Assembly (NCBI GenBank): GCA_001029635.1
Contig: CP011209.1
Coordinates: forward strand, 80,983-144,982
Direction: 5' to 3'
Length of the DNA: 64,000 bases
DNA from: Candidatus Wolfebacteria bacterium GW2011_GWB1_47_1
Lineage (GTDB): Bacteria > Patescibacteriota > Minisyncoccia > UBA6257 > UBA9933
The translations under genes and the position numbers were made by a program. How positions within the stretch are numbered: the stretch's first letter is position 1; each line of letters opens with the position of its first letter. Shown piece after piece: positions 3,476-60,097 of the stretch. The notes under the pieces were generated by a model. That model searched no databases. It saw nothing but the letters and a program-made list of their open reading frames with translations, and was not told the origin of the DNA.

Positions 3476-3499
3476 GTCATTCCCGCGAAGGCGGGAGTC
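3476..3499. repeat. REP-like hairpin GTCATTCCCGCGAAGGCGGGAGTC
   Basis: Second copy of the 1409-1433 element, between two minus-strand genes. Confidence 0.6.
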
Positions 3500-3541
3500 T
3501 ATTGCTGATCTAATTTTTATTCTGATAGTTTAATTATAAAC

Positions 3542-3599: not shown

Positions 3600-4763
3600 C
3601 TATGCGAACTCGATTTTGTTGTCCCGGAGTACTGCAACGTCCGCTCCGAAATTCAACTGTCTCAACGTTTTCAGTACTTCGTCAGGATAGAGCCCGGGGA
3701 CCATGACGATCACAAGATCGACCGGATTTTCCTCCAAGTGGCTCGGTGCCACGATATTAAAATGTGTGACCGGAGTGAATCTTCCCTGTTTGAACTTTGC
3801 GGAATCAATCACATAGGCAATATCGGTGATATTACTCAGTGCCAGCAGCGTTAATGTTCTATGACCCGCCCCCCACACCGCTATCTTCTGGTTATTTGTC
3901 ACGTAGGTTGCGACGAGACGCTGCAGCTCGTTAATGAGCAAATGCATCGGACCGCGGCGACCAAAAAGGTTTAGAGCCTCTCGCTTTTTCACCGTTGCCG
4001 CAATGTCATTCTCTTCGTTGATGATCCGGCATTCCAGTACGTCAAACCCGTTTGCCTCAAAAGCATGGGTCAACGTCCTCGTCGTGAAGTACGAAATGTG
4101 ATCGGGAACGAATTCGTAGAGACATTTCGTCTTAAGCAGGTATTCCAGGTTGGGGACAGTTACAAACCCCACGGCATTGGCCGCCAAGTTGCCGGATATG
4201 TTTTCGATAATCCTACCAGGATCGGGCAAATGCTCGAGATAGTTCAGACAGATGAACGCATCGAAGGGGCCTCCGGCTATCGCGCCCCTGTCTCCGATGT
4301 ACCGCTGGACCATCGTCCTACCCAAAGCCGCTCCCCTCTCTACCGATTTTCCGGACGCTTCCACCCCTGTTGCTTGCATGCCGACTTCTTCCAAAACATC
4401 CAGCATCGCACCTTCGCCACAGCCGATATCCACTACCTTTTTACCTGCAAGTCCGAATCGCTCGACCAACTCTTGCATCTGGCCCAGCCGGGACAATCTT
4501 GCCTTCTCGGATAATGAAGCGGCGGTAATAACCTCCTTGAAGTAGTCCACTGGCTGCATCCCATGCTGCACCAGTCCGCAATGCGAACACTGCTTGATCG
4601 CCAGGGTAATGCCGGTGTCCTCGGCAAATTCATCGATTTCCGGATAATACTGGGCAGCTTTTGGCATCCCTTTCAAAAGAAGAATCTGACCTGCGGGTAG
4701 TGCGTGATTGCACAAATGACAGCGGTTGTTCGAATCCATGGTTCTCTCCTCCTCTGTATTCAA
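3600..4763 (-). CDS. SAM-dependent sugar C-methyltransferase (TylCIII/NovU-like: N-terminal Zn-ribbon + class I MTase + C-methyltransferase C-terminal domain)
   Basis: 387 aa; CHLCNH...CSHCG zinc-ribbon, a VVDIGCGEGAML SAM-binding motif, and a long C-terminal domain. Architecture is typical of NDP-hexose C-methyltransferases. RBS GAGGAGGAGAGAA upstream. Confidence 0.6.
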   Translation of the reverse strand: MNTEEERTMDSNNRCHLCNHALPAGQILLLKGMPKAAQYYPEIDEFAEDTGITLAIKQCSHCGLVQHGMQPVDYFKEVITAASLSEKARLSRLGQMQELVERFGLAGKKVVDIGCGEGAMLDVLEEVGMQATGVEASGKSVERGAALGRTMVQRYIGDRGAIAGGPFDAFICLNYLEHLPDPGRIIENISGNLAANAVGFVTVPNLEYLLKTKCLYEFVPDHISYFTTRTLTHAFEANGFDVLECRIINEENDIAATVKKREALNLFGRRGPMHLLINELQRLVATYVTNNQKIAVWGAGHRTLTLLALSNITDIAYVIDSAKFKQGRFTPVTHFNIVAPSHLEENPVDLVIVMVPGLYPDEVLKTLRQLNFGADVAVLRDNKIEFA

Positions 4764-13175: not shown

Positions 13176-14147
13176 TTACCGTTCCATCTTGAAGTACTTG
13201 CGATACCACATAGACGTATACTCGATGCCCTCCTCGAACGTGTATTGCGATCTCCATCCGAGGATACTAGTCGCCTTCTCGAAGCTCAGGCTTTGAGAGG
13301 GGATCTCGTTCTTCTGTGTGCTGCGGATCACATACTCACACTTTCGCTTCAACGTCTTCGCGATCGCATCGATCAACTCGATAACGGTGAAGTTGTACCC
13401 GGTGCTGAAATTGAACGCTTCGCCTTTGGAGATATCCATCTGCTCCATAAGGGCAACGTACCCGTCGGCGACGTCCTTTACGTAGACATAGTCACGGACG
13501 AACTGTCCGTCGCTGCGAAGCTCGAGCGGCTCGCAACACCAGGTAGCCCGCATGATGCCGGGCACGATACGGTTGAGGTTGAGATCCCCGGGGCCGTAGA
13601 TGTTCCCAAACCGACTGACTGCAACGGGCAGGCCATAGGTCTTCGCGTAGGTCCGCGCGATCAGGTCGGTGCATGACTTGGAGACATCATACGGATGATC
13701 TCCTGCCATCGGCGCATCCTCGGTCGCATTGTCGCACTTCTTTCCGTACGCCTTGTCGCTCGAAGCAACAACGACGCCTTTGACCATCGTCGAACGCCGA
13801 GCTGCTTCCAAGACATTCACCGTCCCCATGATGTTGGTTTCCAACGTCTCACGTGGATTGACGAATGCCGTGTTGACGATCGGCTGTGCGGCGACGTGAA
13901 AGATGTGTTCGATTTCATACCGGGTGACCACGTCAAGTACGCGTTGCGCATCCTTGATGTCGCACGTTGCGCTGACGACATGATCACCAAGCTTCTTGCC
14001 AGCGAAGTAGGACCACGGATTCGATGCTCGGCACGTGATGTGCACATGCGCACCCATGGCGATCAACTTCTCGGTCAGATGTCCTCCGACAAGTCCTGTC
14101 GCTCCGGTGACCAGAACGTTTCGGCCTCTTAAGTCGTGCTTTGTCAC
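13176..14147 (-). CDS. CDP-glucose 4,6-dehydratase-like NAD-dependent epimerase/dehydratase (RfbG/DdhB-like)
   Basis: ORF track gives 13176..14300. The track's start lies upstream of a terminator hairpin at 14243-14260. A GTG start at 14147-14145 (VTKHDLRGRNVLVTGATGLVGGHL) is preceded by AGGAGG with 6-nt spacing. Rossmann GATG motif; SxxxxxYxxxK-type catalytic region (YDVSK). Confidence 0.7.
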   Translation of the reverse strand: MTKHDLRGRNVLVTGATGLVGGHLTEKLIAMGAHVHITCRASNPWSYFAGKKLGDHVVSATCDIKDAQRVLDVVTRYEIEHIFHVAAQPIVNTAFVNPRETLETNIMGTVNVLEAARRSTMVKGVVVASSDKAYGKKCDNATEDAPMAGDHPYDVSKSCTDLIARTYAKTYGLPVAVSRFGNIYGPGDLNLNRIVPGIMRATWCCEPLELRSDGQFVRDYVYVKDVADGYVALMEQMDISKGEAFNFSTGYNFTVIELIDAIAKTLKRKCEYVIRSTQKNEIPSQSLSFEKATSILGWRSQYTFEEGIEYTSMWYRKYFKMER

Positions 14148-14235
14148 ATGCCACCTCCTGTATGCGATTGTCTTAATGCATGGATATGCTATTAGTGTTC
14201 TGACTTTTGTATAGTGATTTTTAATGAAAAAGTCA

Positions 14236-14262
14236 ACAAAAAGAGGGGCCGAAGCCCCTCTC
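14236..14262 (-). terminator. rho-independent terminator after rfbF
   Basis: GAGGGGC-CGAA-GCCCCTC perfect stem followed by a T-run on the minus strand. Confidence 0.6.
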
Positions 14263-14266
14263 ACGT

Positions 14267-15049
14267 TTACCAGACCTTCCAAAACGGATCGCACTCCCAC
14301 AGCTCATTCAGCTCAAGAACTTCCTTTTGAGTGTCCATGGGTTTCCACCTTCCCCCATGGGAAAAGACAGACAGCTCTCCGCGCTCCGCCAGCGGGATGA
14401 ACACGTGTTCGATCATCGAATCGGGGTCAATCAGGTCGAGCGCCTCGTTCTTGAACACCATGAACCCGCCGTTTACGTAGTCGGCGTGTTCGCCGCCTAT
14501 AAAGTCTTTGACCTTCGCCTGGTGAAAATCCCTAGCCTTACCGGTACTGTCATCGACGGAGATCAGGCCGAATCGCTCTTCCTTGTGTACGCCGGTGATC
14601 GTGCCGATCGTACCCTGCTTTTGATGGAACTCGACCAGCTTGATTACGTTGACATTGCCAACCCCGTCACCGTAAGTAAGCATAAAATCTTCACCACCGA
14701 GATGGCGCCGTAAGCGCCTGACGCGCTCGCCCGTAAGAGAATTCAGACCGGTTTCTACAAATGTGACTTTGAAGTCGTCGCAATCGTTGTTGTGAAACGT
14801 CAGCTCGGCGGTCTTCGTGTCGAGCGTGAAGTCGTTCAGGAATGTCCTCCAGTGCAGGAAGTATTCCTTGATCATATCGCCACGATACCCTAATGCGAGG
14901 ATGAATTCGTTATATCCGTAGTGGGCGTAGATCTTCATGATGTGCCACAAGATCGGCTTACCGCCGACGAGCACCAACGGCTTCGGCTTAAACTCCGTTT
15001 CCTCCTTCATGCGAGTGCCTTGCCCTCCGCACAGAATCACCGTTTTCAT
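14267..15049 (-). CDS. rfbF: glucose-1-phosphate cytidylyltransferase
   Basis: 260 aa; MKTVILCGGQGTRMKEETEFKPKPLVLVGGKPILWHIMKIY closely resembles Salmonella/Yersinia RfbF (DdhA). Confidence 0.85.
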   Translation of the reverse strand: MKTVILCGGQGTRMKEETEFKPKPLVLVGGKPILWHIMKIYAHYGYNEFILALGYRGDMIKEYFLHWRTFLNDFTLDTKTAELTFHNNDCDDFKVTFVETGLNSLTGERVRRLRRHLGGEDFMLTYGDGVGNVNVIKLVEFHQKQGTIGTITGVHKEERFGLISVDDSTGKARDFHQAKVKDFIGGEHADYVNGGFMVFKNEALDLIDPDSMIEHVFIPLAERGELSVFSHGGRWKPMDTQKEVLELNELWECDPFWKVW

Positions 15050-15176
15050 ATACCCCCCCTTATTCGGTTGTATCCGCTGTATGTACAGCTAGTTCTAGTT
15101 ACTGTATAAAAATTTTCTCATTAAAAGTCAAACGGTTCTTTGTTGTCCTGCTGCACTTGTTAACGATTAACCAGCC

Positions 15177-15260
15177 CAAACACCACCACCCCGAACGCAA
15201 CTCCGACATTCAAAGATTCCTTTTTTGCCACGCATTGGGATTTTCAAAAATAGTGTGCTT
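15177..15260. repeat. duplicated remnant of the 3' end of the SpoU methyltransferase gene (52 bp identical to 16424-16475, ~70% over a further 30 bp)
   Basis: Direct sequence match CCCAAACACCACCACCCCGAACGCAACTCCGACATTCAAAGATTCCTTTTT. The two copies flank the Fic gene. Confidence 0.65.
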
Positions 15261-15261
15261 A

Positions 15262-16317
15262 TTAATTTACCGCATAATTTCTCGCAGCAAAATCATATTG
15301 GGCAATAAAAATACTCTTGAACGGCGTCAGAATATTTAATTCATAGAATACAAGAACAGCCTCTCGATATTCCTGCTCGTTCACGCTGCGGTAAGAAAGT
15401 GGCGCCAAATCATATGCCAGCAAGATAGCATCAGCCAAAAGTCTACCAGTTCGCTTGTTTCCATCTTCGAATGGCTGTATATACGAAATGCCAATAACCG
15501 CCAAGAGTGCTTTTCCGTAAGGAGAATCACATTGCACTATTTTTTGAGTAAGTGCGTGTAATGCTTCAGATATCTGAAATTCATTGTCAAGAGGTCTATA
15601 AATAGAGCCAGTAACGCCAACTGCTCTTTTTCTTAAATTAAAACCCACATTAAGATCTTTTACTAAGATCTTATGCAGCTCCTCAATATCATTTTTTGAA
15701 AGACTCTTAAATCGATCAGCATTCTTGTGGACATATTCAAAGGCGCTCTTATGATTCAAGATCATCTGAGTTTCATCTTTTGTCTTCCCCGGTGCTGCAA
15801 TGTGTCGGAGAATTAACATCTCAGTATCTAGGAGACTATACGTATTTCCTTCAATCTTTGACGACTTCCAAGAAAGCTCGATAATCAGCCGCTCTAGCTC
15901 CTTTCTTCGTATGCTTTCTGGCAGATCATTGATCCTCCGCCGATATTCATGAGTCGCTTCATCAAGAACCCGCTCTTCTGTCTCATTAAAAAGAACCGTG
16001 GGCATTTCAACAAATAGATCAAAGTTATATCGGGTCATCCCATATCGATTATCGGGGTCAACTGAACAATAAGCAGAAGCGTCTATATCTGCAAAAACTC
16101 TCCCGGTCGTACTTATTGCATACGCCGTGGATCGTCCCGACCCAGAAACCCTTAACACATTCAACTTGACCAATTCGGACAAGATTCTCTTTACAGTCAC
16201 GAGAGAAATTTGCTCGCCAGATTCCTTTAAATCGGAGTATATCTGAGATGACGAAAAAGTCTCCCCTTTTAGTAAGGTTGTCACTATTAGTTGTTGTTTT
16301 TGATTCAATTGGGTCAT
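15262..16317 (-). CDS. Fic-family protein (AMPylator/adenylyltransferase-like) with N-terminal winged-HTH
   Basis: 351 aa; canonical Fic motif HPFEDGNKRTGR. Confidence 0.8.
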   Translation of the reverse strand: MTQLNQKQQLIVTTLLKGETFSSSQIYSDLKESGEQISLVTVKRILSELVKLNVLRVSGSGRSTAYAISTTGRVFADIDASAYCSVDPDNRYGMTRYNFDLFVEMPTVLFNETEERVLDEATHEYRRRINDLPESIRRKELERLIIELSWKSSKIEGNTYSLLDTEMLILRHIAAPGKTKDETQMILNHKSAFEYVHKNADRFKSLSKNDIEELHKILVKDLNVGFNLRKRAVGVTGSIYRPLDNEFQISEALHALTQKIVQCDSPYGKALLAVIGISYIQPFEDGNKRTGRLLADAILLAYDLAPLSYRSVNEQEYREAVLVFYELNILTPFKSIFIAQYDFAARNYAVN

Positions 16318-16336
16318 ATTCGTATCATTTATATAT

Positions 16337-16365
16337 AATTATCGTATCATTATGATACGATAATT
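16337..16365. promoter_or_regulatory. perfect 14+1+14 bp palindrome AATTATCGTATCAT-T-ATGATACGATAATT immediately upstream of fic start (candidate autoregulatory operator)
   Basis: Seen directly in sequence; additional half-site-like CGTATCAT / TGATACGA copies flank it. Confidence 0.55.
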
Positions 16366-16401
16366 ACAATACTTTGATACGAAAACACGCCCTGGTCTTA
16401 T

Positions 16402-16887
16402 TCACTTGGCCCTATTCAGAATCCCAAACACCACCACCCCGAACGCAACTCCGACATTCAAAGATTCCTTTTTCCCGTGCATCGGAATTTCCAAAATATG
16501 GTCTGTGCGGGCCAGGATCCCCTTTGGCAGTCCTTCTACCTCATTGCCCATTATCAGGGCTAATTTGGCCGTTTTTGGGGCGTTAAAGCCTATATACGGC
16601 ACCGAATCAGCAGATTGTTCGACTGCGCAAATGGTATACCCCTCCTTTTTTAATCTCCCTATGAGGCGAACAGCCGATTTTGAATATTCCCAAGGAATAT
16701 AATCCTCCGCACCAAGCGATACCTTGGAAATATCTTGACGCTTACGCCCAAATTGGTCGACGGGTTGTGGCGTGATGCCACACAAAAACACCTTCTTTAC
16801 ACCCGCCGCATCGGCAGTCCGGAATATGGATCCGACATTATGCGTACTGCGAATGTCGGGCAAGATGACTACGATTTCCATTCGCAA
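16402..16887 (-). CDS. SpoU-family (SPOUT) RNA 2'-O-methyltransferase, TrmL/TrmH-like
   Basis: 161 aa; size and LCGITPQPVD...ALIMGNEVEGLP...NVGVAFGVVVF match minimal SpoU (TrmL-type) methyltransferases. Confidence 0.7.
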   Translation of the reverse strand: MRMEIVVILPDIRSTHNVGSIFRTADAAGVKKVFLCGITPQPVDQFGRKRQDISKVSLGAEDYIPWEYSKSAVRLIGRLKKEGYTICAVEQSADSVPYIGFNAPKTAKLALIMGNEVEGLPKGILARTDHILEIPMHGKKESLNVGVAFGVVVFGILNRAK

Positions 16888-16924: not shown

Positions 16925-19900
16925 TTAATTAATCTCGAAATACATATCATGAACACCAACATCACGTCCTTCGCTCCCCACGTATGTCGTCAATCCTCCG
17001 TTCACATATGCGCCATACTCAGCAGCACCATACACACTACTTAGAGCATCGGACGGCGGGATAAAGTACAAAACATAATTAATAGCAGGATCAAGTGCGA
17101 TCAAATTGCCAAAATCAAACACCATCGACGTCTTTACATCCGCGACGTTATTTTCTTCACTTGAATAAACCTCTGCGATACTTGTCTTTGCACACGAAGC
17201 GAGGTCGGTACAAATGCCGACGCGCCATCGCCCGGCCCTTTCGCTTTCGCCATAGATCCGAACTATTTTTATTGATGAGATAGCATTCTTTCCAATTACC
17301 TGCTGATAACGCGCTTTTACGGTCGGGGTAGAGCGTATGGAATCATTCAGCTGGGAGAGCGTTGCGGGGCCGGAAGGGAACGCCACTACATCACTATCGA
17401 CAAAATCGGTCGTTGTTGATTCTGTAGACGTGGGTTCAGGTTCGAGTACGACTACAGGCATAACATTTTCCATCCCTGGAGTTGATGATGCCGCTTGCCA
17501 TACATCGCCGAACTTTTGCAATGAATTACCGTCGCCCTGTGCGCCGGTAGCCGATGCGTACATTGTTGTATCGATAACCAAGTCGCCATTCTTTAACACA
17601 AGAAATTCGCCCTCATTACTCAATGAGAACGTGCTATCAAAAAGCGTTCCAGTAAAACCGCTGTTATCAGCAAGAAACGCCGTACTATCATTTCCAATAA
17701 CCGCATACCCCGCCGGAAGTAGCGAGGGACTGCCTTGTTTTAGAGTCAGCCCATGATGCGTTTCGTTCTCGTAGAATTTCCATTCGGCAATATCAACAGT
17801 TGTGGTCCCGTTATTATACAACTCAATCCACTCGCGACCCTCATCAGCCCCCGGGAGGTCATACATGGCCTCGTTAATAATAACCGGATAAAACTGCATT
17901 ATAGTGGTTGTGGCAGTAGTGGTAGCAATATCTTCTGTCGAAGACTCAGTTACCTGCGTTGTTGTCGCAAGTGCAATAGAACTGATCGCAAAATACATAT
18001 CCGCGAGACCCGTATCGATTGCCTCATTGATGTAATAGGGCTCATATTGTCCAAACGCATACAACTTTCCGCCGAGATATACATCAGCAGCAGATCCCCG
18101 AATATGCGATACTCTATCTTTGGCAGGAACGCTTCCCGTCGGTTCAACAAACAGCGCATATAGCATGCCAGCATCAAGCGCCACGGGTTCATTAAATCCA
18201 AACGTAAGCAACGTTTCAGTATCTCCACCAGGCATATCCCGATCAGCAAAGGCCTGAACCAAAACAGTTGAGCACTTGAGAGTCAACGGGTTGAATGCAC
18301 AAACGCCACCTCTCCACTTACCCGCAACTCCCGAACCATATACCGAAAAAGATCCGACGGTATACGAAGTACTGGTCGCTAATGATTGATAATAGGTTAT
18401 CACGCTCAACCCTCCCGAATCGGCACTGTGAATTGACTGCGAAGACGTTGCATACATATCCGCAGTCGTCGTGGCCACATTAACAATAGGCGCACTGTTT
18501 ATGCGCCCGGGAGTCGAAGATGCGGCAACCCAAACGCCATCAATCAATTGCAGTGAAGCACCATCACCGTAGGCACCTGTACTCGACGCATAGGAAGTCG
18601 AGTCTATGGTCAACGTGCCATTTTTAAAAGAAAGCTGTTCTCCGTCATTGTTAAGCGAAAAGGAGCTTTCAAGAATACTCCCGGTAAACCCTGCGTTATC
18701 CTTTAAAAATTCATCTTTACTTCCCGTGATAATTACATAGCCATCAACCGACATAACGGAAGATCCCTGCACAGCAGCGAGTTCATGGTTCACCTCGCCC
18801 TCGAATAATTTCCAATCTAGAATATCAACAGTAGTCGAACCGGTATTGCGCAGCTCTATCCATTCCCGATTTGTATCAGCCCCCGGTAGATCATACATGA
18901 TCTCGTTGATGGTAACCGGATAAAACTGCGGTTCGGCAATCGAAAGCGAATCGCCACCGCGCCCACTTTGCGCCGAACTCAAAGAAACGGAAATTCCCCC
19001 GCCATTTGAATACGTGACGCCGGCAGAATTTTCTTTCTTAGGTGTTCCTCCCACGCTCGAAGATGTGCGCCAGCCACCACCTGAGTTGCGCTCCATCGTC
19101 TGCTTGGAATCATTACTCCCTGCAGTCCAATGCGCCGCAACGGGGATCTCGTCAACAATACTGCACGAGGAATCAAACAAATGCAGTCCATCGCTGGAAT
19201 TTCCGAGCGCACCCGAATAAATAAGATCTGCCGTGACGCCAACCGCAGAATTATTATCGGTTCGCTCCAGAAGCACGATCTGCCCTGCCTTAACGGTTGA
19301 ATTTTTTAAATCATCTAATCGAATTTTAACGCCACCTCCTTTGTTTAATAATTGCCAACCCGAAACATCGACATCGTTTGAAGAAACGTTTTTGAGCTCG
19401 ATCCACTCGTCACCTGCACTGCGCACACCGCCCATCCATGCCACCTCATTTATAACGACACCCCTCTGTATAGATTTAGTGGTAGACCCATATGGGCATA
19501 AAGGAGCATCTAATTGCTTTGACGAAGCACTCTTCACTAGCTCTACCTCCTGCGCATCAGACTCAACAACTTCGGGCTTTTTCTTCTCTAGGGCAAGTAC
19601 CGTTTTATCTTGCACTTGCGCTTCCTTCTGCAATTGAGCTATCTGCAGCTTTAACGCAGCAATCTCATCATTCTTCTTTGTAGCCGCGTCTTTTTTAACC
19701 GTAGTCGTATTGGGACCGGCAGACGCATCCGCTTCGTCATTACTACCGGTATCAAGCTCACTGGATTCCAGTCCTACACTGCCCACATCAGTCAATCCAT
19801 TGTCGTTAGTAAACAACCCTCCGACAAATTTTGCCGAAGAAGTAATGCCATTTCCGATAGCACCCAGTACGTTTCCAAAGAACGCTCCTGTCTTCACTGT

Positions 19901-20983
19901 AACACTCTTCACACCACCCCAAATAGAACTAACAACGTTAGAAGCCCTTGCGACAATACTCGGCTTCGGCGTTTCTTCTTTCAAAAAATCAGGATCTTGT
20001 CGAGCCTTTTCAACATCGTGGAAGAATAGGTCAATCACCCCAGCGCTATAGTGAACCGTACGGACGGAAAGAAGGGACCAGTAGGATTCCATAACTAAAT
20101 CCTTAGTCACAGAAGTATTAGCACTATTCGTTCCATAAATATCATCTAGATTTCGCTGGGCAACTAAGAAATATTGACTCCCCTCATCATCCTTACTCTT
20201 AAAATAATACCATCCGTCATTTTTAGACTCAGCAGTCTTAAAATCAAGCTCCGGGAAATCGTACGCCCCTATAGATTCGGGACTATAGAAATATTTATTG
20301 GAATACTTTGCCAACCCATCGAAGTACTTATCGAGCGAACGAAGACTGACGGGCTTTTTATCTCCGATGCGACTCCTAAGCTGATCATCAGGACTATTTG
20401 AATCGTACCGGGCTGTGTATTCTTCATATTTACTACCCTTTACGTGACTGTCGTTTCTTGTATGCTCAGGTACCCCCATATCCTCCATAAGATGGAGAAT
20501 GTGGCCGAGCACCTCCATGGCCATTGCTTCGTCGCCATTAAGCCAATAGCGAATCCCCTCATTCCATGCAAAGTTCGAGGTTGGATAAAATCCTTCTATT
20601 TTTTCTTTATCAACCGGAGCAAGAGAGGAATCCGAAAGGAGTGTGTATTCAACACCGCCCTGACTCACTAAGTCATTAGCCCATTCCTTCGCCGACTCAC
20701 CGTCAAGAAGACCATCACTAAGCCCCGCATCATTAATGGGATCATAAAAATGATTCCGATACCGAGGATCGTCATCCTCGTGGATAGATCCGTCTATCAA
20801 GAAGCGCTTCAGATCAGCAGATATCTTATTCTCCGCCGTGTTTTTGTTATACAGCTCGATTGCTTCAGCAGTTAGATAGGCATGCGTATTGACTTCGTAT
20901 CCATACACCAATTGCGCAGAAAAAAATAAACCAACCACCAGTAGAAGCGAGGGAATCAAAACGCCAAATTTTCTATTTTCCAT
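16925..20983 (-). CDS. giant secreted protein: N-terminal Zn-dependent phospholipase C-like domain + coiled coil + three lamin-tail-domain (LTD) repeats
   Basis: 1352 aa; signal peptide; HFYDPINDAG matches the PLC zinc-binding region (B. cereus ASHFYDPD). LTD signatures VINEVAWMGG...EWIELKN, QFYPVTINEIMYD...REWIELRN, QFYPVIINEAMYD...REWIELYN. Two ~300-aa internal tandem repeats. Confidence 0.7.
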   Translation of the reverse strand: MENRKFGVLIPSLLLVVGLFFSAQLVYGYEVNTHAYLTAEAIELYNKNTAENKISADLKRFLIDGSIHEDDDPRYRNHFYDPINDAGLSDGLLDGESAKEWANDLVSQGGVEYTLLSDSSLAPVDKEKIEGFYPTSNFAWNEGIRYWLNGDEAMAMEVLGHILHLMEDMGVPEHTRNDSHVKGSKYEEYTARYDSNSPDDQLRSRIGDKKPVSLRSLDKYFDGLAKYSNKYFYSPESIGAYDFPELDFKTAESKNDGWYYFKSKDDEGSQYFLVAQRNLDDIYGTNSANTSVTKDLVMESYWSLLSVRTVHYSAGVIDLFFHDVEKARQDPDFLKEETPKPSIVARASNVVSSIWGGVKSVTVKTGAFFGNVLGAIGNGITSSAKFVGGLFTNDNGLTDVGSVGLESSELDTGSNDEADASAGPNTTTVKKDAATKKNDEIAALKLQIAQLQKEAQVQDKTVLALEKKKPEVVESDAQEVELVKSASSKQLDAPLCPYGSTTKSIQRGVVINEVAWMGGVRSAGDEWIELKNVSSNDVDVSGWQLLNKGGGVKIRLDDLKNSTVKAGQIVLLERTDNNSAVGVTADLIYSGALGNSSDGLHLFDSSCSIVDEIPVAAHWTAGSNDSKQTMERNSGGGWRTSSSVGGTPKKENSAGVTYSNGGGISVSLSSAQSGRGGDSLSIAEPQFYPVTINEIMYDLPGADTNREWIELRNTGSTTVDILDWKLFEGEVNHELAAVQGSSVMSVDGYVIITGSKDEFLKDNAGFTGSILESSFSLNNDGEQLSFKNGTLTIDSTSYASSTGAYGDGASLQLIDGVWVAASSTPGRINSAPIVNVATTTADMYATSSQSIHSADSGGLSVITYYQSLATSTSYTVGSFSVYGSGVAGKWRGGVCAFNPLTLKCSTVLVQAFADRDMPGGDTETLLTFGFNEPVALDAGMLYALFVEPTGSVPAKDRVSHIRGSAADVYLGGKLYAFGQYEPYYINEAIDTGLADMYFAISSIALATTTQVTESSTEDIATTTATTTIMQFYPVIINEAMYDLPGADEGREWIELYNNGTTTVDIAEWKFYENETHHGLTLKQGSPSLLPAGYAVIGNDSTAFLADNSGFTGTLFDSTFSLSNEGEFLVLKNGDLVIDTTMYASATGAQGDGNSLQKFGDVWQAASSTPGMENVMPVVVLEPEPTSTESTTTDFVDSDVVAFPSGPATLSQLNDSIRSTPTVKARYQQVIGKNAISSIKIVRIYGESERAGRWRVGICTDLASCAKTSIAEVYSSEENNVADVKTSMVFDFGNLIALDPAINYVLYFIPPSDALSSVYGAAEYGAYVNGGLTTYVGSEGRDVGVHDMYFEIN

Positions 20984-21943: not shown

Positions 21944-22737
21944 ATGTACGTCATCTGATGACGTACATACCGGAATATTATTTTTCCAGAAGAACATCAT
22001 ATATTTCTCCAATACTGATATCCTTCACCCATTGATCCAACGCCTGCGCATACCCCTTCTCTCCTCCAAAAAATTCGAGCAGCAATTCTCGCTGTGTAAC
22101 CGATGGAAAGTTTTTCTTTCCTAAATAATCCAAGTGACTCGACCACCGATAATTCTCCAAGTAACTCATCGCATCAGCATGATTATGTACAGCACGCTCT
22201 CGCCACCCATAATCAAACATATCGAGTGGATTTAAGTGAATATAATATGGCAGATGAACAAAATGTGCATGCGCCGTAACTAATATCGACTTATATCTCC
22301 CTTCAAATAGTGTCCCTTTTCGTTCATATCGTTCATTAAAATATCGCGAATACCCCATATTTAATTTCTTCATAAACTTCGAGATGCCACCTTCGATCGC
22401 GGGACTAAGTAATAGATGATAATGATTTGGCATTAAACAGAAAGCATGAATATGAACCAAAAGCTTCCGGGTATGTCCTTCATCTATGGCGATATGTCCT
22501 TCGTCGGCTATTTGCTTGGCTTTTTCGAAAATGCGGTGACTCGTACCAACAGATTCAACGTCATTAAACTCATAAAGGTCATGAATAAATCTAAGATAAT
22601 CAAAAGTATCCTTAAAAATTTCTCGCTTATCGACTCCCCGAGTCAACGCATGATAAAGATCTGCCATATAATACATCGTACTACAATACACGCGCCATCG
22701 CTACATATGTACGTCATCTGATGACGTGCATATGTAG
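21944..22737 (-). mobile_element. IS200/IS605-like element: HUH Y1 transposase (RAYT-like) flanked by palindromic hairpins
   Basis: Flanks are ATGTACGTCATC-T-GATGACGTACAT (21944-21968) and an 18+1+18 version with one mismatch (22701-22737). A third inverted copy is at 22921-22945. Confidence 0.65.
21978..22691 (-). CDS. IS200-like / REP-associated tyrosine transposase (HUH Y1)
   Basis: 237 aa; HUH motif HAFCLMPNHYHLLL and catalytic YRWSS region. Confidence 0.75.
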   Translation of the reverse strand: MYCSTMYYMADLYHALTRGVDKREIFKDTFDYLRFIHDLYEFNDVESVGTSHRIFEKAKQIADEGHIAIDEGHTRKLLVHIHAFCLMPNHYHLLLSPAIEGGISKFMKKLNMGYSRYFNERYERKGTLFEGRYKSILVTAHAHFVHLPYYIHLNPLDMFDYGWRERAVHNHADAMSYLENYRWSSHLDYLGKKNFPSVTQRELLLEFFGGEKGYAQALDQWVKDISIGEIYDVLLEK

Positions 22738-59563: not shown

Positions 59564-60097
59564 TTACTTAATAGCCTTTACTCCTTTAGGCTCAGGAATT
59601 ACATATATATCCAAAAATGCAACAGGGCTATCAGTAGAAATATCGGTGCCAACCGTCTCGTAGCGGGCAAGATACGTCAAGGCAGGATCAATAATAGTAA
59701 GATCGTTAGACCGCAGCTCTTCGATCACAGGAGCCTTCCCGGCGACAGTGGTTATCTTCGTAATCTTAGTATTCCCGTCTATGCGCACGGCGTGTACCTC
59801 AGCATCTGAAGCGTGCACCGTTTCATATGCCGGGATATCCTGCGTAGACTGATGTCCTTTAAGATCGAGAATTTTTACCGAACCATCCATTCGAAGAACG
59901 GAGGTGGTGGGTTTTCCGATAAATCCGCGGGTAACGAGATTTGGAGCTTCGGGAGAACCTCCAACGACGATCGGCATACTATCAGACTGATTCGATCGGA
60001 CCAAGAGAAAAACAGCCATTCCTAACGCAACAAGTCCGACGAGACCGGTTGCAATCACTCCACCCGTAACCAATTTGTTTATTTTTGATTGTTCCAT
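59564..60097 (-). CDS. small N-terminally membrane-anchored protein (module A, gene 1)
   Basis: 177 aa; MEQSKINKLVTGGVIATGLVGLVALGMAVFLL TM; paralog of 62904-63404. Confidence 0.4.
   Translation of the reverse strand: MEQSKINKLVTGGVIATGLVGLVALGMAVFLLVRSNQSDSMPIVVGGSPEAPNLVTRGFIGKPTTSVLRMDGSVKILDLKGHQSTQDIPAYETVHASDAEVHAVRIDGNTKITKITTVAGKAPVIEELRSNDLTIIDPALTYLARYETVGTDISTDSPVAFLDIYVIPEPKGVKAIK

Follow-up and report, generated by a model that had tools for sequence, protein, structure and literature searches.

How does a single gene come to lie between two copies of the end of its neighbour when nothing around it encodes a recombinase? This question is raised by a locus in the 64,000-nucleotide (nt) stretch of the Candidatus Wolfebacteria bacterium GW2011_GWB1_47_1 genome that we analysed computationally (contig CP011209.1, positions 80,983 to 144,982; henceforth referred to as the window, whose coordinates are used throughout). 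Here, a gene for a Fic protein with an N-terminal winged helix-turn-helix (wHTH), and with Gln in place of the catalytic His, separates an intact SpoU/TrmH-family RNA 2'-O-methyltransferase gene (henceforth SpoU) from a decayed duplicate of the SpoU 3' end. We consider it rather probable that the Fic gene is a mobile, autorepressed cassette whose presence is accompanied by a long duplication of the end of the target gene, and we prefer the version of this reading in which the cassette entered by recombination with a donor fragment. The locus has the features of an insertion with long target duplication (an exact core of 51 bp, a repeat of ~100 bp and a 1.25-kb unit with the Fic gene alone inside). 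An identical locus was found in independent assemblies, genome GCA_001000945.1 of the candidate phyla radiation (CPR) being a carrier, and it is therefore no assembly artefact.

The two copies of the SpoU 3' end (listed with the other features in Table 1) share a core that is identical at 51 of 51 positions and falls within codons K137-G153 of the intact gene. This 51-mer occurs twice in the window and nowhere else in it (chance expectation, 0), and so does not behave as the dispersed repeat that the initial annotation had named as a possible refutation. Over its full length (99 nt in the remnant, copy A, and 105 nt in the intact gene, copy B) the duplication is identical in 82 of 106 alignment columns, which leaves 31 of 55 (~56%) outside the core. 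The repeat proposed in the initial annotation is thus real, but its 52 identical bp are 51, its flanks match at ~56% rather than ~70%, and the weaker similarity over ~30 nt that had been placed downstream of the gene lies upstream on the coding strand, within the SpoU coding sequence (16474-16506). The last seven SpoU codons and the stop codon (16402-16422) are matched by a diverged stretch of the remnant (15160-15174). Two 1-nt indels put copy A out of frame; translated with its frameshifts it reads ..FLKIPMRGKK/ESLNVGVAFGVVVFGLVNR-stop, and by its sequence copy A is a pseudogene fragment of the SpoU C-terminus. One of its two frameshifts is an extra T (TTTTTG), where all real SpoU genes have ATTTTG. 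The Fic open reading frame (ORF) lies, as first described, exactly between the copies, the remnant setting in 3 nt beyond its TAATAA stop. Two features of the repeat bear on its origin. Since ortholog SpoU genes vary within the core at several third-codon positions, the perfect identity of the two copies is more than simple conservation. Moreover, the tail of the remnant, LVNR-stop, agrees with the ortholog tails, L[IV]N[RH]-stop, whereas that of the intact gene, ...GILNRAK-stop, is atypical, the orthologs finishing in ...GL(I/V)N(R/H)-stop.

The Fic domain of the 351-residue protein was recognised by Pfam at residues 206-299 (1.5e-12; 48.6 bits against a cut-off of 24). An AlphaFold2 (AF2) model built on a 24-homolog alignment (predicted local distance difference test score 88.8; predicted template modelling score 0.88) contains a wHTH at residues 6-68 (helices 6-16, 23-32 and 39-51; strands 55-58 and 65-68) followed by an all-helical Fic core, and the N-terminus also gave weak Pfam matches to FUR and Penicillinase_R; the initial assignment of a winged HTH to this part is thereby confirmed at the level of a model. 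FICD was the top Foldseek match (3e-10; TM-score ~0.6), with other class II Fic proteins also recovered, and human FICD ranked best when the 24-homolog profile was compared with solved structures (5.5e-16). PADLOC returned generic Fic matches (SoFic and PDC-S04), and no specific NCBIfam model was found for the protein, all matches being far under cut-offs.

The Fic motif, QPFEDGNKRTGR (I-Q-P-F-E-D-G-N-K-R-T-G-R), had been read as the canonical HPF... motif, which is incorrect: the codon at 15475-15477 is CAG, and the encoded Gln281 aligns to the catalytic His363 of FICD. The protein thus lacks the invariant His of the canonical enzyme motif HxFx[D/E]GN[G/K]R but keeps its other conserved positions (F, D, G, N, K, R). 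Gln occupies the catalytic position in 24 of 24 aligned homologs, in 120 of the 120 best homologs and in 117 of 118 motif-bearing representatives of clusters at 50% identity, down to ~30% identity; relatives in IMG/VR, which were found by a pattern without the Gln, have it too. Variants of the motif among relatives include QPFEDVNKR, QAFGDGNKR and QFYYDGNKR. The family is large: it comprises 293 clusters at 50% identity (E<=1e-30), upwards of 7,900 at 90% identity and more than 500 genome-encoded copies. Neither the strings of the Gln motif nor Fic proteins of Patescibacteria turned up in literature searches. Ahead of the Fic core, the sequence S152-SKI-E156-G157 conforms to the class II pattern (S/T)xxxE(G/N), and 117 of 120 homologs have the string SS[KR]IEGN. 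Thus, when the search for an antitoxin or an inhibitory helix that the initial annotation had advised was carried out, an intramolecular helix motif (S152-SKIE156-GN) was found but no separate antitoxin: between the SpoU stop codon and rfbF there is no partner antitoxin ORF, only the SpoU remnant. Sequence and model together describe a class II Fic fold with an inhibitory motif and a nucleotide-binding nest but without the general base. The published definition of the family treats the catalytic His as invariant (PMC4454073), whereas the GN[G/K]R element, here GNKR, fits the accepted consensus HPFx[D/E]GN[G/K]R (PMC2686095). Given that Gln is found throughout the family alongside intact nucleotide-binding residues, the Fic domain probably functions, although probably not as a His-dependent AMPylating toxin of the standard kind; the toxic AMPylator of the initial annotation is thus not supported.

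Upstream of the Fic gene, the perfect 14+1+14 palindrome and the extra half-site copies that had been described initially are all present (Table 1), and the palindrome is unique in the window. The two outer half-sites lie 22 bp from the inner ones, symmetrically about position 16351, so that an imperfect palindrome of 65 bp (16319-16383) results. An extended -10-like element, TGaTACGAT in gene sense (TACGAT at 16341-16346), is located in the right half of the palindrome, 17 nt from the putative -35 box, and the palindrome therefore sits over what would be the promoter core. The same layout of -35 box, 10-3-10 palindrome (ATCGTATCA-NNN-TGATACGAT) and third half-site is common to 79 of 80 CPR loci that encode homologs, the spacing in the family being a -35-like TTG(aca), two bases, the palindrome, ~9 nt and then AAATGATACGAwwATG at the start codon. 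Information content is limited to these three elements, with none farther upstream or past the stop codon. The assignment of the promoter rests on this family conservation because a generic promoter scan did not pick up the putative Fic promoter in the window, and promoter function of the -35- and -10-like elements is accordingly inferred from sequence. In distant Gln-Fic subfamilies on putative viral contigs, other N-terminal helices go together with other half-sites of 7-9 bp (e.g. AAGCTCAA, CTGCTCA, ACTGCGCCA, TGGCGAAC), which are found in 3-5 copies, in both orientations, upstream of each gene. This co-variation of half-site and subfamily is the strongest indication at hand that the wHTH recognises its own promoter, and together with the conservation in 79 of 80 homologs it strongly supports, on the strength of comparative data, the autoregulatory operator proposed at the outset. 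The set of subfamily half-sites on IMG/VR contigs L178-L196 (30-44% identity) also constitutes a resource for the recognition code of the wHTH. Elsewhere in the window there is one operator-like match only, at 59976-59996 (ATACTATCAGACTGATTCGAT; 3 mismatches), which is most likely due to chance.

The mobility of the cassette is indicated by a comparison of 80 loci encoding homologs (52-63% identity), which come from genomes spread over a wide range of CPR/Patescibacteria lineages. When the 30 protein pairs of highest similarity (75-87.5% amino acid (aa) identity) were examined, no homology was detectable in either 2-kb flank for 27 of them. In 12 cassette pairs from unrelated contexts, nucleotide homology began at the -35 box (at -52 to -56 from the ATG in 7 of the 12, the onset being somewhat farther out in the remaining 5), and in none of the 12 did it continue past the stop codon. 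From these sequence comparisons the mobile unit would be a single gene of ~1.11 kb reaching from the -35 box to the stop codon (~1.14 kb in the window, where the leader is longer). In one sublineage (L012:~3888-4000 and L016:~3875-4000), the shared unit extends ~60-70 nt farther upstream and includes a terminator-like hairpin (AAAAGTCGCCTAAATGGCGACTTTTT), so that the cassette does not have the same limits in every lineage. Plasmids and putative viral contigs (IMG/VR) also carry relatives, at 30-44% identity.

Direct repeats of 21-117 bp (83-100% identical) lie just outside the cassette limits in 16 of the 80 loci, in addition to the window. Of 121 control windows, each shifted by 2.3 kb within these loci, only 4 scored as high, which corresponds to a ~6-fold enrichment (Fisher p = 1.7e-4), and none of 150 mismatched locus pairs scored above 39.1 bits. 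Each locus has its own repeated sequence, which corresponds to the end of a gene next to the cassette. This may be the 3' end of an upstream gene (e.g. a ychF-like gene ending ...DGDVMEFRI-stop, or one whose end contains the motif ...DPCMSCAAH...), the 5' end of a downstream gene (e.g. a gene whose product opens MPEKFFITTAIPYTNAEPHIGHLLEF) or the 3' end of a convergent gene. No short target-site duplication above the null expectation was detected in the repeat-negative loci, no inverted repeats and no conserved 3' element were present at the cassette ends, and in the window we found no integrase or transposase inside the repeats and no recombinase within +/-6 kb. A classical DDE transposon or insertion sequence was rejected, since there are no terminal inverted repeats, no short fixed target-site duplication, and repeats of locus-specific sequence and of 21-117 bp; the phrase target duplication, as initially used, does not hold in the transposon sense. 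An integron gene cassette was likewise rejected because the unit has its own promoter and its conservation ends at the stop codon, with no conserved 3' element.

That the cassette was inserted into the 3' end of SpoU is supported by relatives of the flanking genes. The SpoU orthologs nearest to the window gene (83-87% aa and ~78% nt identity) keep the synteny of a lamin-tail domain (LTD) protein gene, a pilin-like gene and SpoU, followed by rfbF and rfbG, and each has one SpoU 3' end and no Gln-Fic cassette; in the metagenomes, none of 80 loci of SpoU relatives contained the cassette. Homology of the window to these relatives restarts 26 nt past the stop codon of the remnant. Insertion with duplication, as the initial annotation had it, is thus borne out by the syntenic orthologs and by the excess of repeats over controls, and a duplication without the Fic gene, which was looked for among the relatives, did not occur there. 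In contrast, the claim of a recent acquisition is not supported. The nearest relative of the cassette (P0001; 80% aa and 76% nt identity) lies on the 1152-bp contig L176 (SRR22387828), where TTTTTGGAAATCCCGATGTT, 6 nt past the Fic stop codon, is the same SpoU fragment with the same onset and the same extra T as in the window. Since the junction and the extra T are common to both, the junction between Fic gene and remnant is older than their 24% nt divergence; in addition, the repeat flanks in the window are ~44% diverged and the remnant carries two frameshifts, the extra T shared with L176 being one of them. No SpoU neighbour was found in the 80 genome Fic loci (0/80), and the SpoU-linked lineage so far consists of the window and L176 only. 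A further SpoU gene with an odd tail (P0122; GLMNRPR) was considered as the donor context and rejected, as its downstream neighbours are a terminator and the gene for a large multi-pass membrane protein, not Fic. The base composition of the Fic gene (GC 40.2%; GC at third codon positions, GC3, 36.9%) is lower than that of SpoU (GC 48.7%), of rfbF (GC 52.9%) and of its neighbours in general (GC 49-53%, GC3 53-71%), which fits a foreign origin and provides no date.

The interval between SpoU and rfbF is itself variable. Three gap alleles in relatives (L093:3529-4226, L094:3539-4558 and L097:3558-5913, orthologous to window ~15050-16400) show it to be a hotspot, whose cargo comprises a pair of HTH_17 and Doc (HPFQNGNKR) genes, a ParA-like ATPase gene, and a RhuM-Fic/DOC gene (HPFTDGNKR) with a type-IV-pilin-like paralog; with the window included, 3 of 4 gap alleles contain cargo of the Fic/Doc fold. 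The RhuM-Fic gene of L097 is bracketed by a repeat resembling repetitive extragenic palindromic (REP) elements, GTCATTCCCGCGGAGGCGGGAA (3485-3507 and 4569-4591, with an inverted copy at ~4607-4629), and this 23-bp direct repeat was rejected as a target duplication. Sequences akin to it, which translate to ..IPAKAGI..RGND.., were seen in spurious ORFs of L093 and L094; it is probably a dispersed small repeat family of the three genomes.

We propose the following sequence of events for the cassette in the window. Incoming DNA, circular or linear and derived from another SpoU-Fic locus, would already have carried a decayed SpoU 3' fragment beside the cassette, and homologous recombination inside the conserved 51-bp stretch would then have generated two hybrid copies of the last ~100 bp. 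The product would read, in gene order, host 5' part, core and donor tail (ILNRAK-stop); cassette; donor frameshifted 5' part, core and host tail (LVNR-stop); 26 nt; and the rfbF promoter. The donor-fragment model accounts for the frameshifted 5' part of the remnant, for the intact but odd new tail and for the ancestral-looking displaced tail. It predicts an empty-site junction (H5-core-H3) of ...CCGATGCACGGGAAAAAGGAATC[core]GGGCTGGTTAATCGTTAACAAGTG, and a junction of the excised circle or tandem of Fic-stop-GCACACTATTTTTGAAAATCCCAATGCGTGGCAAAAAAGG[core]GGGATTCTGAATAGGGCCAAGTGAATAAGACC-operator. The point of entry would be in the last ~35 SpoU/TrmH codons, which code for the SPOUT knot and would be intolerant of disruption, and duplication of the gene end would let an insertion into this essential region survive. 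Once in place, a wHTH dimer is expected to occupy the ATCGTATCA-N3-TGATACGAT palindrome, as its conservation suggests, and to cover the spacer and the extended -10 of its own promoter; more subunits may bind the half-site next to the ATG and, in the window, also the fourth outer site. The predicted outcome is autorepression of the cassette gene, as shown by experiment for the Fic-HTH protein CccR. The Fic domain would serve as an auto-inhibited nucleotide-binding module with non-canonical chemistry or a sensor role, which is the weakest step of the proposal, and it may bring the cassette an addiction-like or defence-like benefit.

Several observations weigh against this proposal. The gap between SpoU and rfbF in the relatives is filled with other cargo, so that the comparison with an empty site, as initially advised, yields a single SpoU end without the cassette but not a clean empty site. 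Neither an empty site nor an excised circle was seen among the contigs of near-identical strains gathered by exact-protein look-ups of Fic, SpoU and rfbF, all ~24 contigs for each of these three neighbouring proteins being occupied, and an exact-pattern scan of metagenomes for the predicted empty-site junction gave 0 matches. About 80% of the 80 loci have no flanking repeat at all, and homologous recombination cannot account for first insertions at new targets. At one pair of loci (L033/L070) a cassette-remnant junction has been vertically inherited over ~22% nt divergence while the repeat is still ~91% identical, and therefore gene conversion could give an identical core without import. As for the regulation and chemistry, the generic scan mentioned above made no call for the window's own promoter (8/12 matches), and residual catalysis by Gln is still conceivable, as discussed in PMC4454073.

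Since the core could have been kept identical by gene conversion, we considered whether the cassette was instead inserted in situ long ago, duplicating ~100 bp of its own SpoU end, after which the remnant decayed, the core was re-homogenised and the locus was inherited vertically. This is possible, though in our judgement on the unlikely side. Long variable direct repeats without a mobility gene are the pattern described for restriction-modification (RM) genes (PMC2853133), the vertical inheritance of the ychF-Fic-remnant arrangement in L033/L070 shows a repeat more conserved than its surroundings, the extra T common to the remnants of the window and L176 fits shared descent, and two frameshifts fit the decay of a pseudogene. 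Against this, the selected, intact copy would have had to change its tail from LVNR-stop to ILNRAK-stop, with a shifted stop codon, while the neutral remnant stayed ortholog-like, and both the cassette and the duplication are missing from relatives that are about equally distant (SpoU ~78% nt). A codon test on the framed repeats counted 18 synonymous and 13 non-synonymous differing codons (two mis-framed loci were excluded by eye), which speaks against in-situ duplication with selection on one copy and is suggestive, not decisive. A second way to obtain such repeats is site-specific integration, in which they would be attL and attR, the 51-bp core would be the attachment (att) core, and the Fic gene would be the residue of an island or a satellite mobilised in trans. 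When an integrase inserts an element into the end of a gene, it typically leaves an identical core between diverged arms, with a new 3' end provided by the element (a pattern discussed in PMC2853133), but there is no integrase in the 1.25-kb unit or within +/-6 kb, where the sole mobility gene is a Y1 transposase 5.6 kb off and outside the repeats; moreover, sequences, lengths (21-117 bp) and gene targets of the repeats vary beyond what one site-specific recombinase could produce, and the conserved unit stops exactly at the stop codon without an att-like conserved end. We therefore regard integration of this kind as very unlikely.

The remaining alternatives concern what the cassette is rather than how its repeats arose. 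A conventional AMPylating Fic toxin, that is, a single-protein toxin-antitoxin system with an inhibitory helix that was recently acquired, would agree with the class II fold, with FICD as the best structural match, with the inhibitory motif, with the PADLOC homology to SoFic and PDC-S04 and with a GN[G/K]R element inside the published consensus (PMC2686095). We nevertheless find it improbable, as the His that is called invariant (PMC4454073) is Gln in 120 of 120 and 117 of 118 members, the equivalent His is necessary for the toxicity of CccR (PMC9755527), and the acquisition is not demonstrably recent. It is scarcely credible that the gene is a non-mobile, ancient and vertically inherited CPR regulator and its flanking repeats by-products of a rearrangement hotspot. 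In favour of such a regulator, genomes usually have one copy of the gene, other cargo fills the variable hotspot between SpoU and rfbF in relatives, and 80% of the loci are without repeats; against it stand near-alike genes whose surroundings are unrelated and whose homology breaks off exactly at the -35 box and at the stop codon, repeats enriched ~6-fold over controls in the same loci, relatives on plasmids and IMG/VR viral contigs, and the deviant base composition of the Fic gene. At the opposite extreme, the cassette could be an autonomous selfish element of a new kind, whose own product aids its spread or retention and for which a decayed piece of a conserved host gene would be the portable homology arm by which it propagates from one CPR genome to another. 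One possible route is a Gln-Fic chemistry whose target would be DNA ends, a protein of recombination or repair, or a nucleophile independent of a general base, and this might cause the staggered breaks behind long target duplications, or addiction; we hold this extension of the mobile-cassette reading to be improbable.

We compared the mobile, autorepressed cassette that we favour with known systems. CccR of Yersinia pseudotuberculosis resembles the window protein in being a class II Fic protein with an inhibitory helix SxxxEG, fused to an HTH and with a palindrome over its own -35/-10 region, and its autorepression was demonstrated by electrophoretic mobility shift assays, footprinting and lacZ fusions (PMC9755527). 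A DNA-binding domain and a palindrome over the gene's own promoter are both present in the window, by model and by conservation. The two differ in architecture (a C-terminal HTH and half-sites 26 bp apart in CccR, against an N-terminal wHTH, a 10-3-10 palindrome and extra half-sites at 22-bp spacing) and in context, CccR being a type VI secretion system effector that AMPylates FtsZ through the catalytic His192 (PMC9755527), whereas the window protein has Gln and is a stand-alone mobile CPR cassette; their sequence kinship is limited to the general Fic fold. The D2 clade of Doc proteins, described in silico (Khater & Mohanty 2015, PMC4454073), has the consensus Qx[F/Y]x[D/E][G/V]NKR with Gln for the catalytic His, to which QPFEDGNKR of the window and QPFEDVNKR of distant relatives conform, and both groups are bacteria-only and known from sequence. 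D2, however, comprises 45 mostly single-domain Doc-like proteins, while the ~350-aa members of the window family combine a wHTH with a ~270-aa Fic core of class II. By structure and by profile the window protein is matched best by FICD/HYPE and other class II Fic AMPylases (e.g. SoFic and CdFic), with which it aligns at the inhibitory Glu and the GNxR..R nest; FICD shares ~20% identity with it and differs in having His363 for Gln281, in its TPR and transmembrane parts and in lacking the N-terminal wHTH.

As to the insertion itself, long target duplications have been described for RM genes, with variable direct repeats of >30 bp around inserts of <20 kb, mainly in naturally competent bacteria (PMC2853133). 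These insertions (Nobusato et al. 2000; Furuta et al. 2010, PMC2853133) share with the cassette the lack of an integrase or transposase and repeats that often cover the 3' end of a neighbour. In contrast to the cassette, which is a single regulator/Fic gene and in which only the central 51 bp are identical, their repeat copies are near-identical and the one-copy empty site was shown. Since both flanks of the core differ by coding-like substitutions, an imported allele or gene conversion is suggested for the window. The combination of a CccR-type autorepressor, the in-silico Gln-Fic clade and a long target duplication has not been described before.

The family is large, uncharacterised and centred on CPR bacteria, while studies of Fic proteins deal almost entirely with His-dependent AMPylases, kinases and phosphocholinases. 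Gln together with kept nucleotide-binding features, an inhibitory Glu, a wHTH and an operator speaks for a sensor role, or for an activity not described so far, and against decay. The cassette also offers a repeated natural example of a gene moving from promoter to stop codon among compact CPR/Patescibacteria genomes without a recognisable recombinase and often with long duplications of adjacent gene ends, a mobility so far recorded mainly for RM systems. Its many independent junctions make the mechanism of insertion tractable by comparative genomics, and the small protein and its 10-3-10 operator make the regulation testable.

Table 1. Features of the SpoU-Fic-rfbF locus in window coordinates.
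Feature	Position	Strand	Details and basis
SpoU/TrmH-family RNA 2'-O-methyltransferase gene, intact	16402..16881	-	159 aa as called; Pfam SpoU_methylase 2e-33
Duplication copy B, 3' end of intact SpoU	16402..16506	-	105 nt; alignment
Exact 51-bp core, copy B	16423..16473		0 mismatches
Leader, SpoU stop to Fic start	16318..16401	-	84 nt; 27% GC; contains the putative promoter and operator
Fourth, outer half-site TGATACG	16375..16381		closest relatives only (L176, partly L009)
Putative -35 box TTGTAA (family consensus TTGaca)	16364..16369	-	left edge of conserved cassette
Perfect 29-bp palindrome, AATTATCGTATCAT-T-ATGATACGATAATT (14+1+14)	16337..16365		sequence; family conservation
Third half-site CGTATCA (gene sense TGATACG)	16321..16327		4 nt ahead of ATG; conserved family-wide
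wHTH-Fic(Gln) gene	15262..16317	-	351 aa; Pfam Fic, AF2, Foldseek, composition
Predicted N-terminal wHTH, about residues 1-75	16093..16317	-	AF2 secondary structure; weak Pfam matches
Class II inhibitory-helix motif S152-S-K-I-E156-G-N158	15844..15864	-	aligned to FICD TVAIE234GN
Fic motif Q281-PFEDGNKRTG-R292	15442..15477	-	Gln codon CAG at 15475-15477; alignment
Duplication copy A, frameshifted SpoU 3'-end remnant	15160..15258	-	99 nt; alignment
Exact 51-bp core, copy A	15175..15225		0 mismatches
rfbF-proximal host sequence, promoter-like GTTTGACTTT...TATACAGT	15092..15134	-	relatives' homology picks up again here
rfbF-like (glucose-1-phosphate cytidylyltransferase-like) gene	14267..15049	-	starts 212 nt beyond Fic gene

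The minus strand holds every gene of the region around the cassette. An alternative TTG start for SpoU is possible at 16887, and the resulting 161-aa form was absent from the records in an exact-protein look-up. The IS200/IS605-type Y1 transposase gene lies at 21978-22691 (minus strand; Pfam Y1_Tnp 1.2e-10), and no connection between it and the Fic insertion was seen. Beyond the cassette, the rfbF-like gene and a CDP-glucose-4,6-dehydratase-like gene (together 13176-15049, minus strand) share a 34-nt overlap and are compositional outliers (GC 53% and GC3 67-71%, against a window mean of 47%), and because their GC and GC3 deviate from this mean, the data suggest that the sugar-nucleotide cluster is itself foreign in origin. 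On the other side of SpoU, a 1352-aa protein encoded at 16925-20983 (minus strand) contains repeated LTD domains and internal sequence repeats, and in one strain (L004/L008) it is broken into ORFs of 522 aa and 783 aa.

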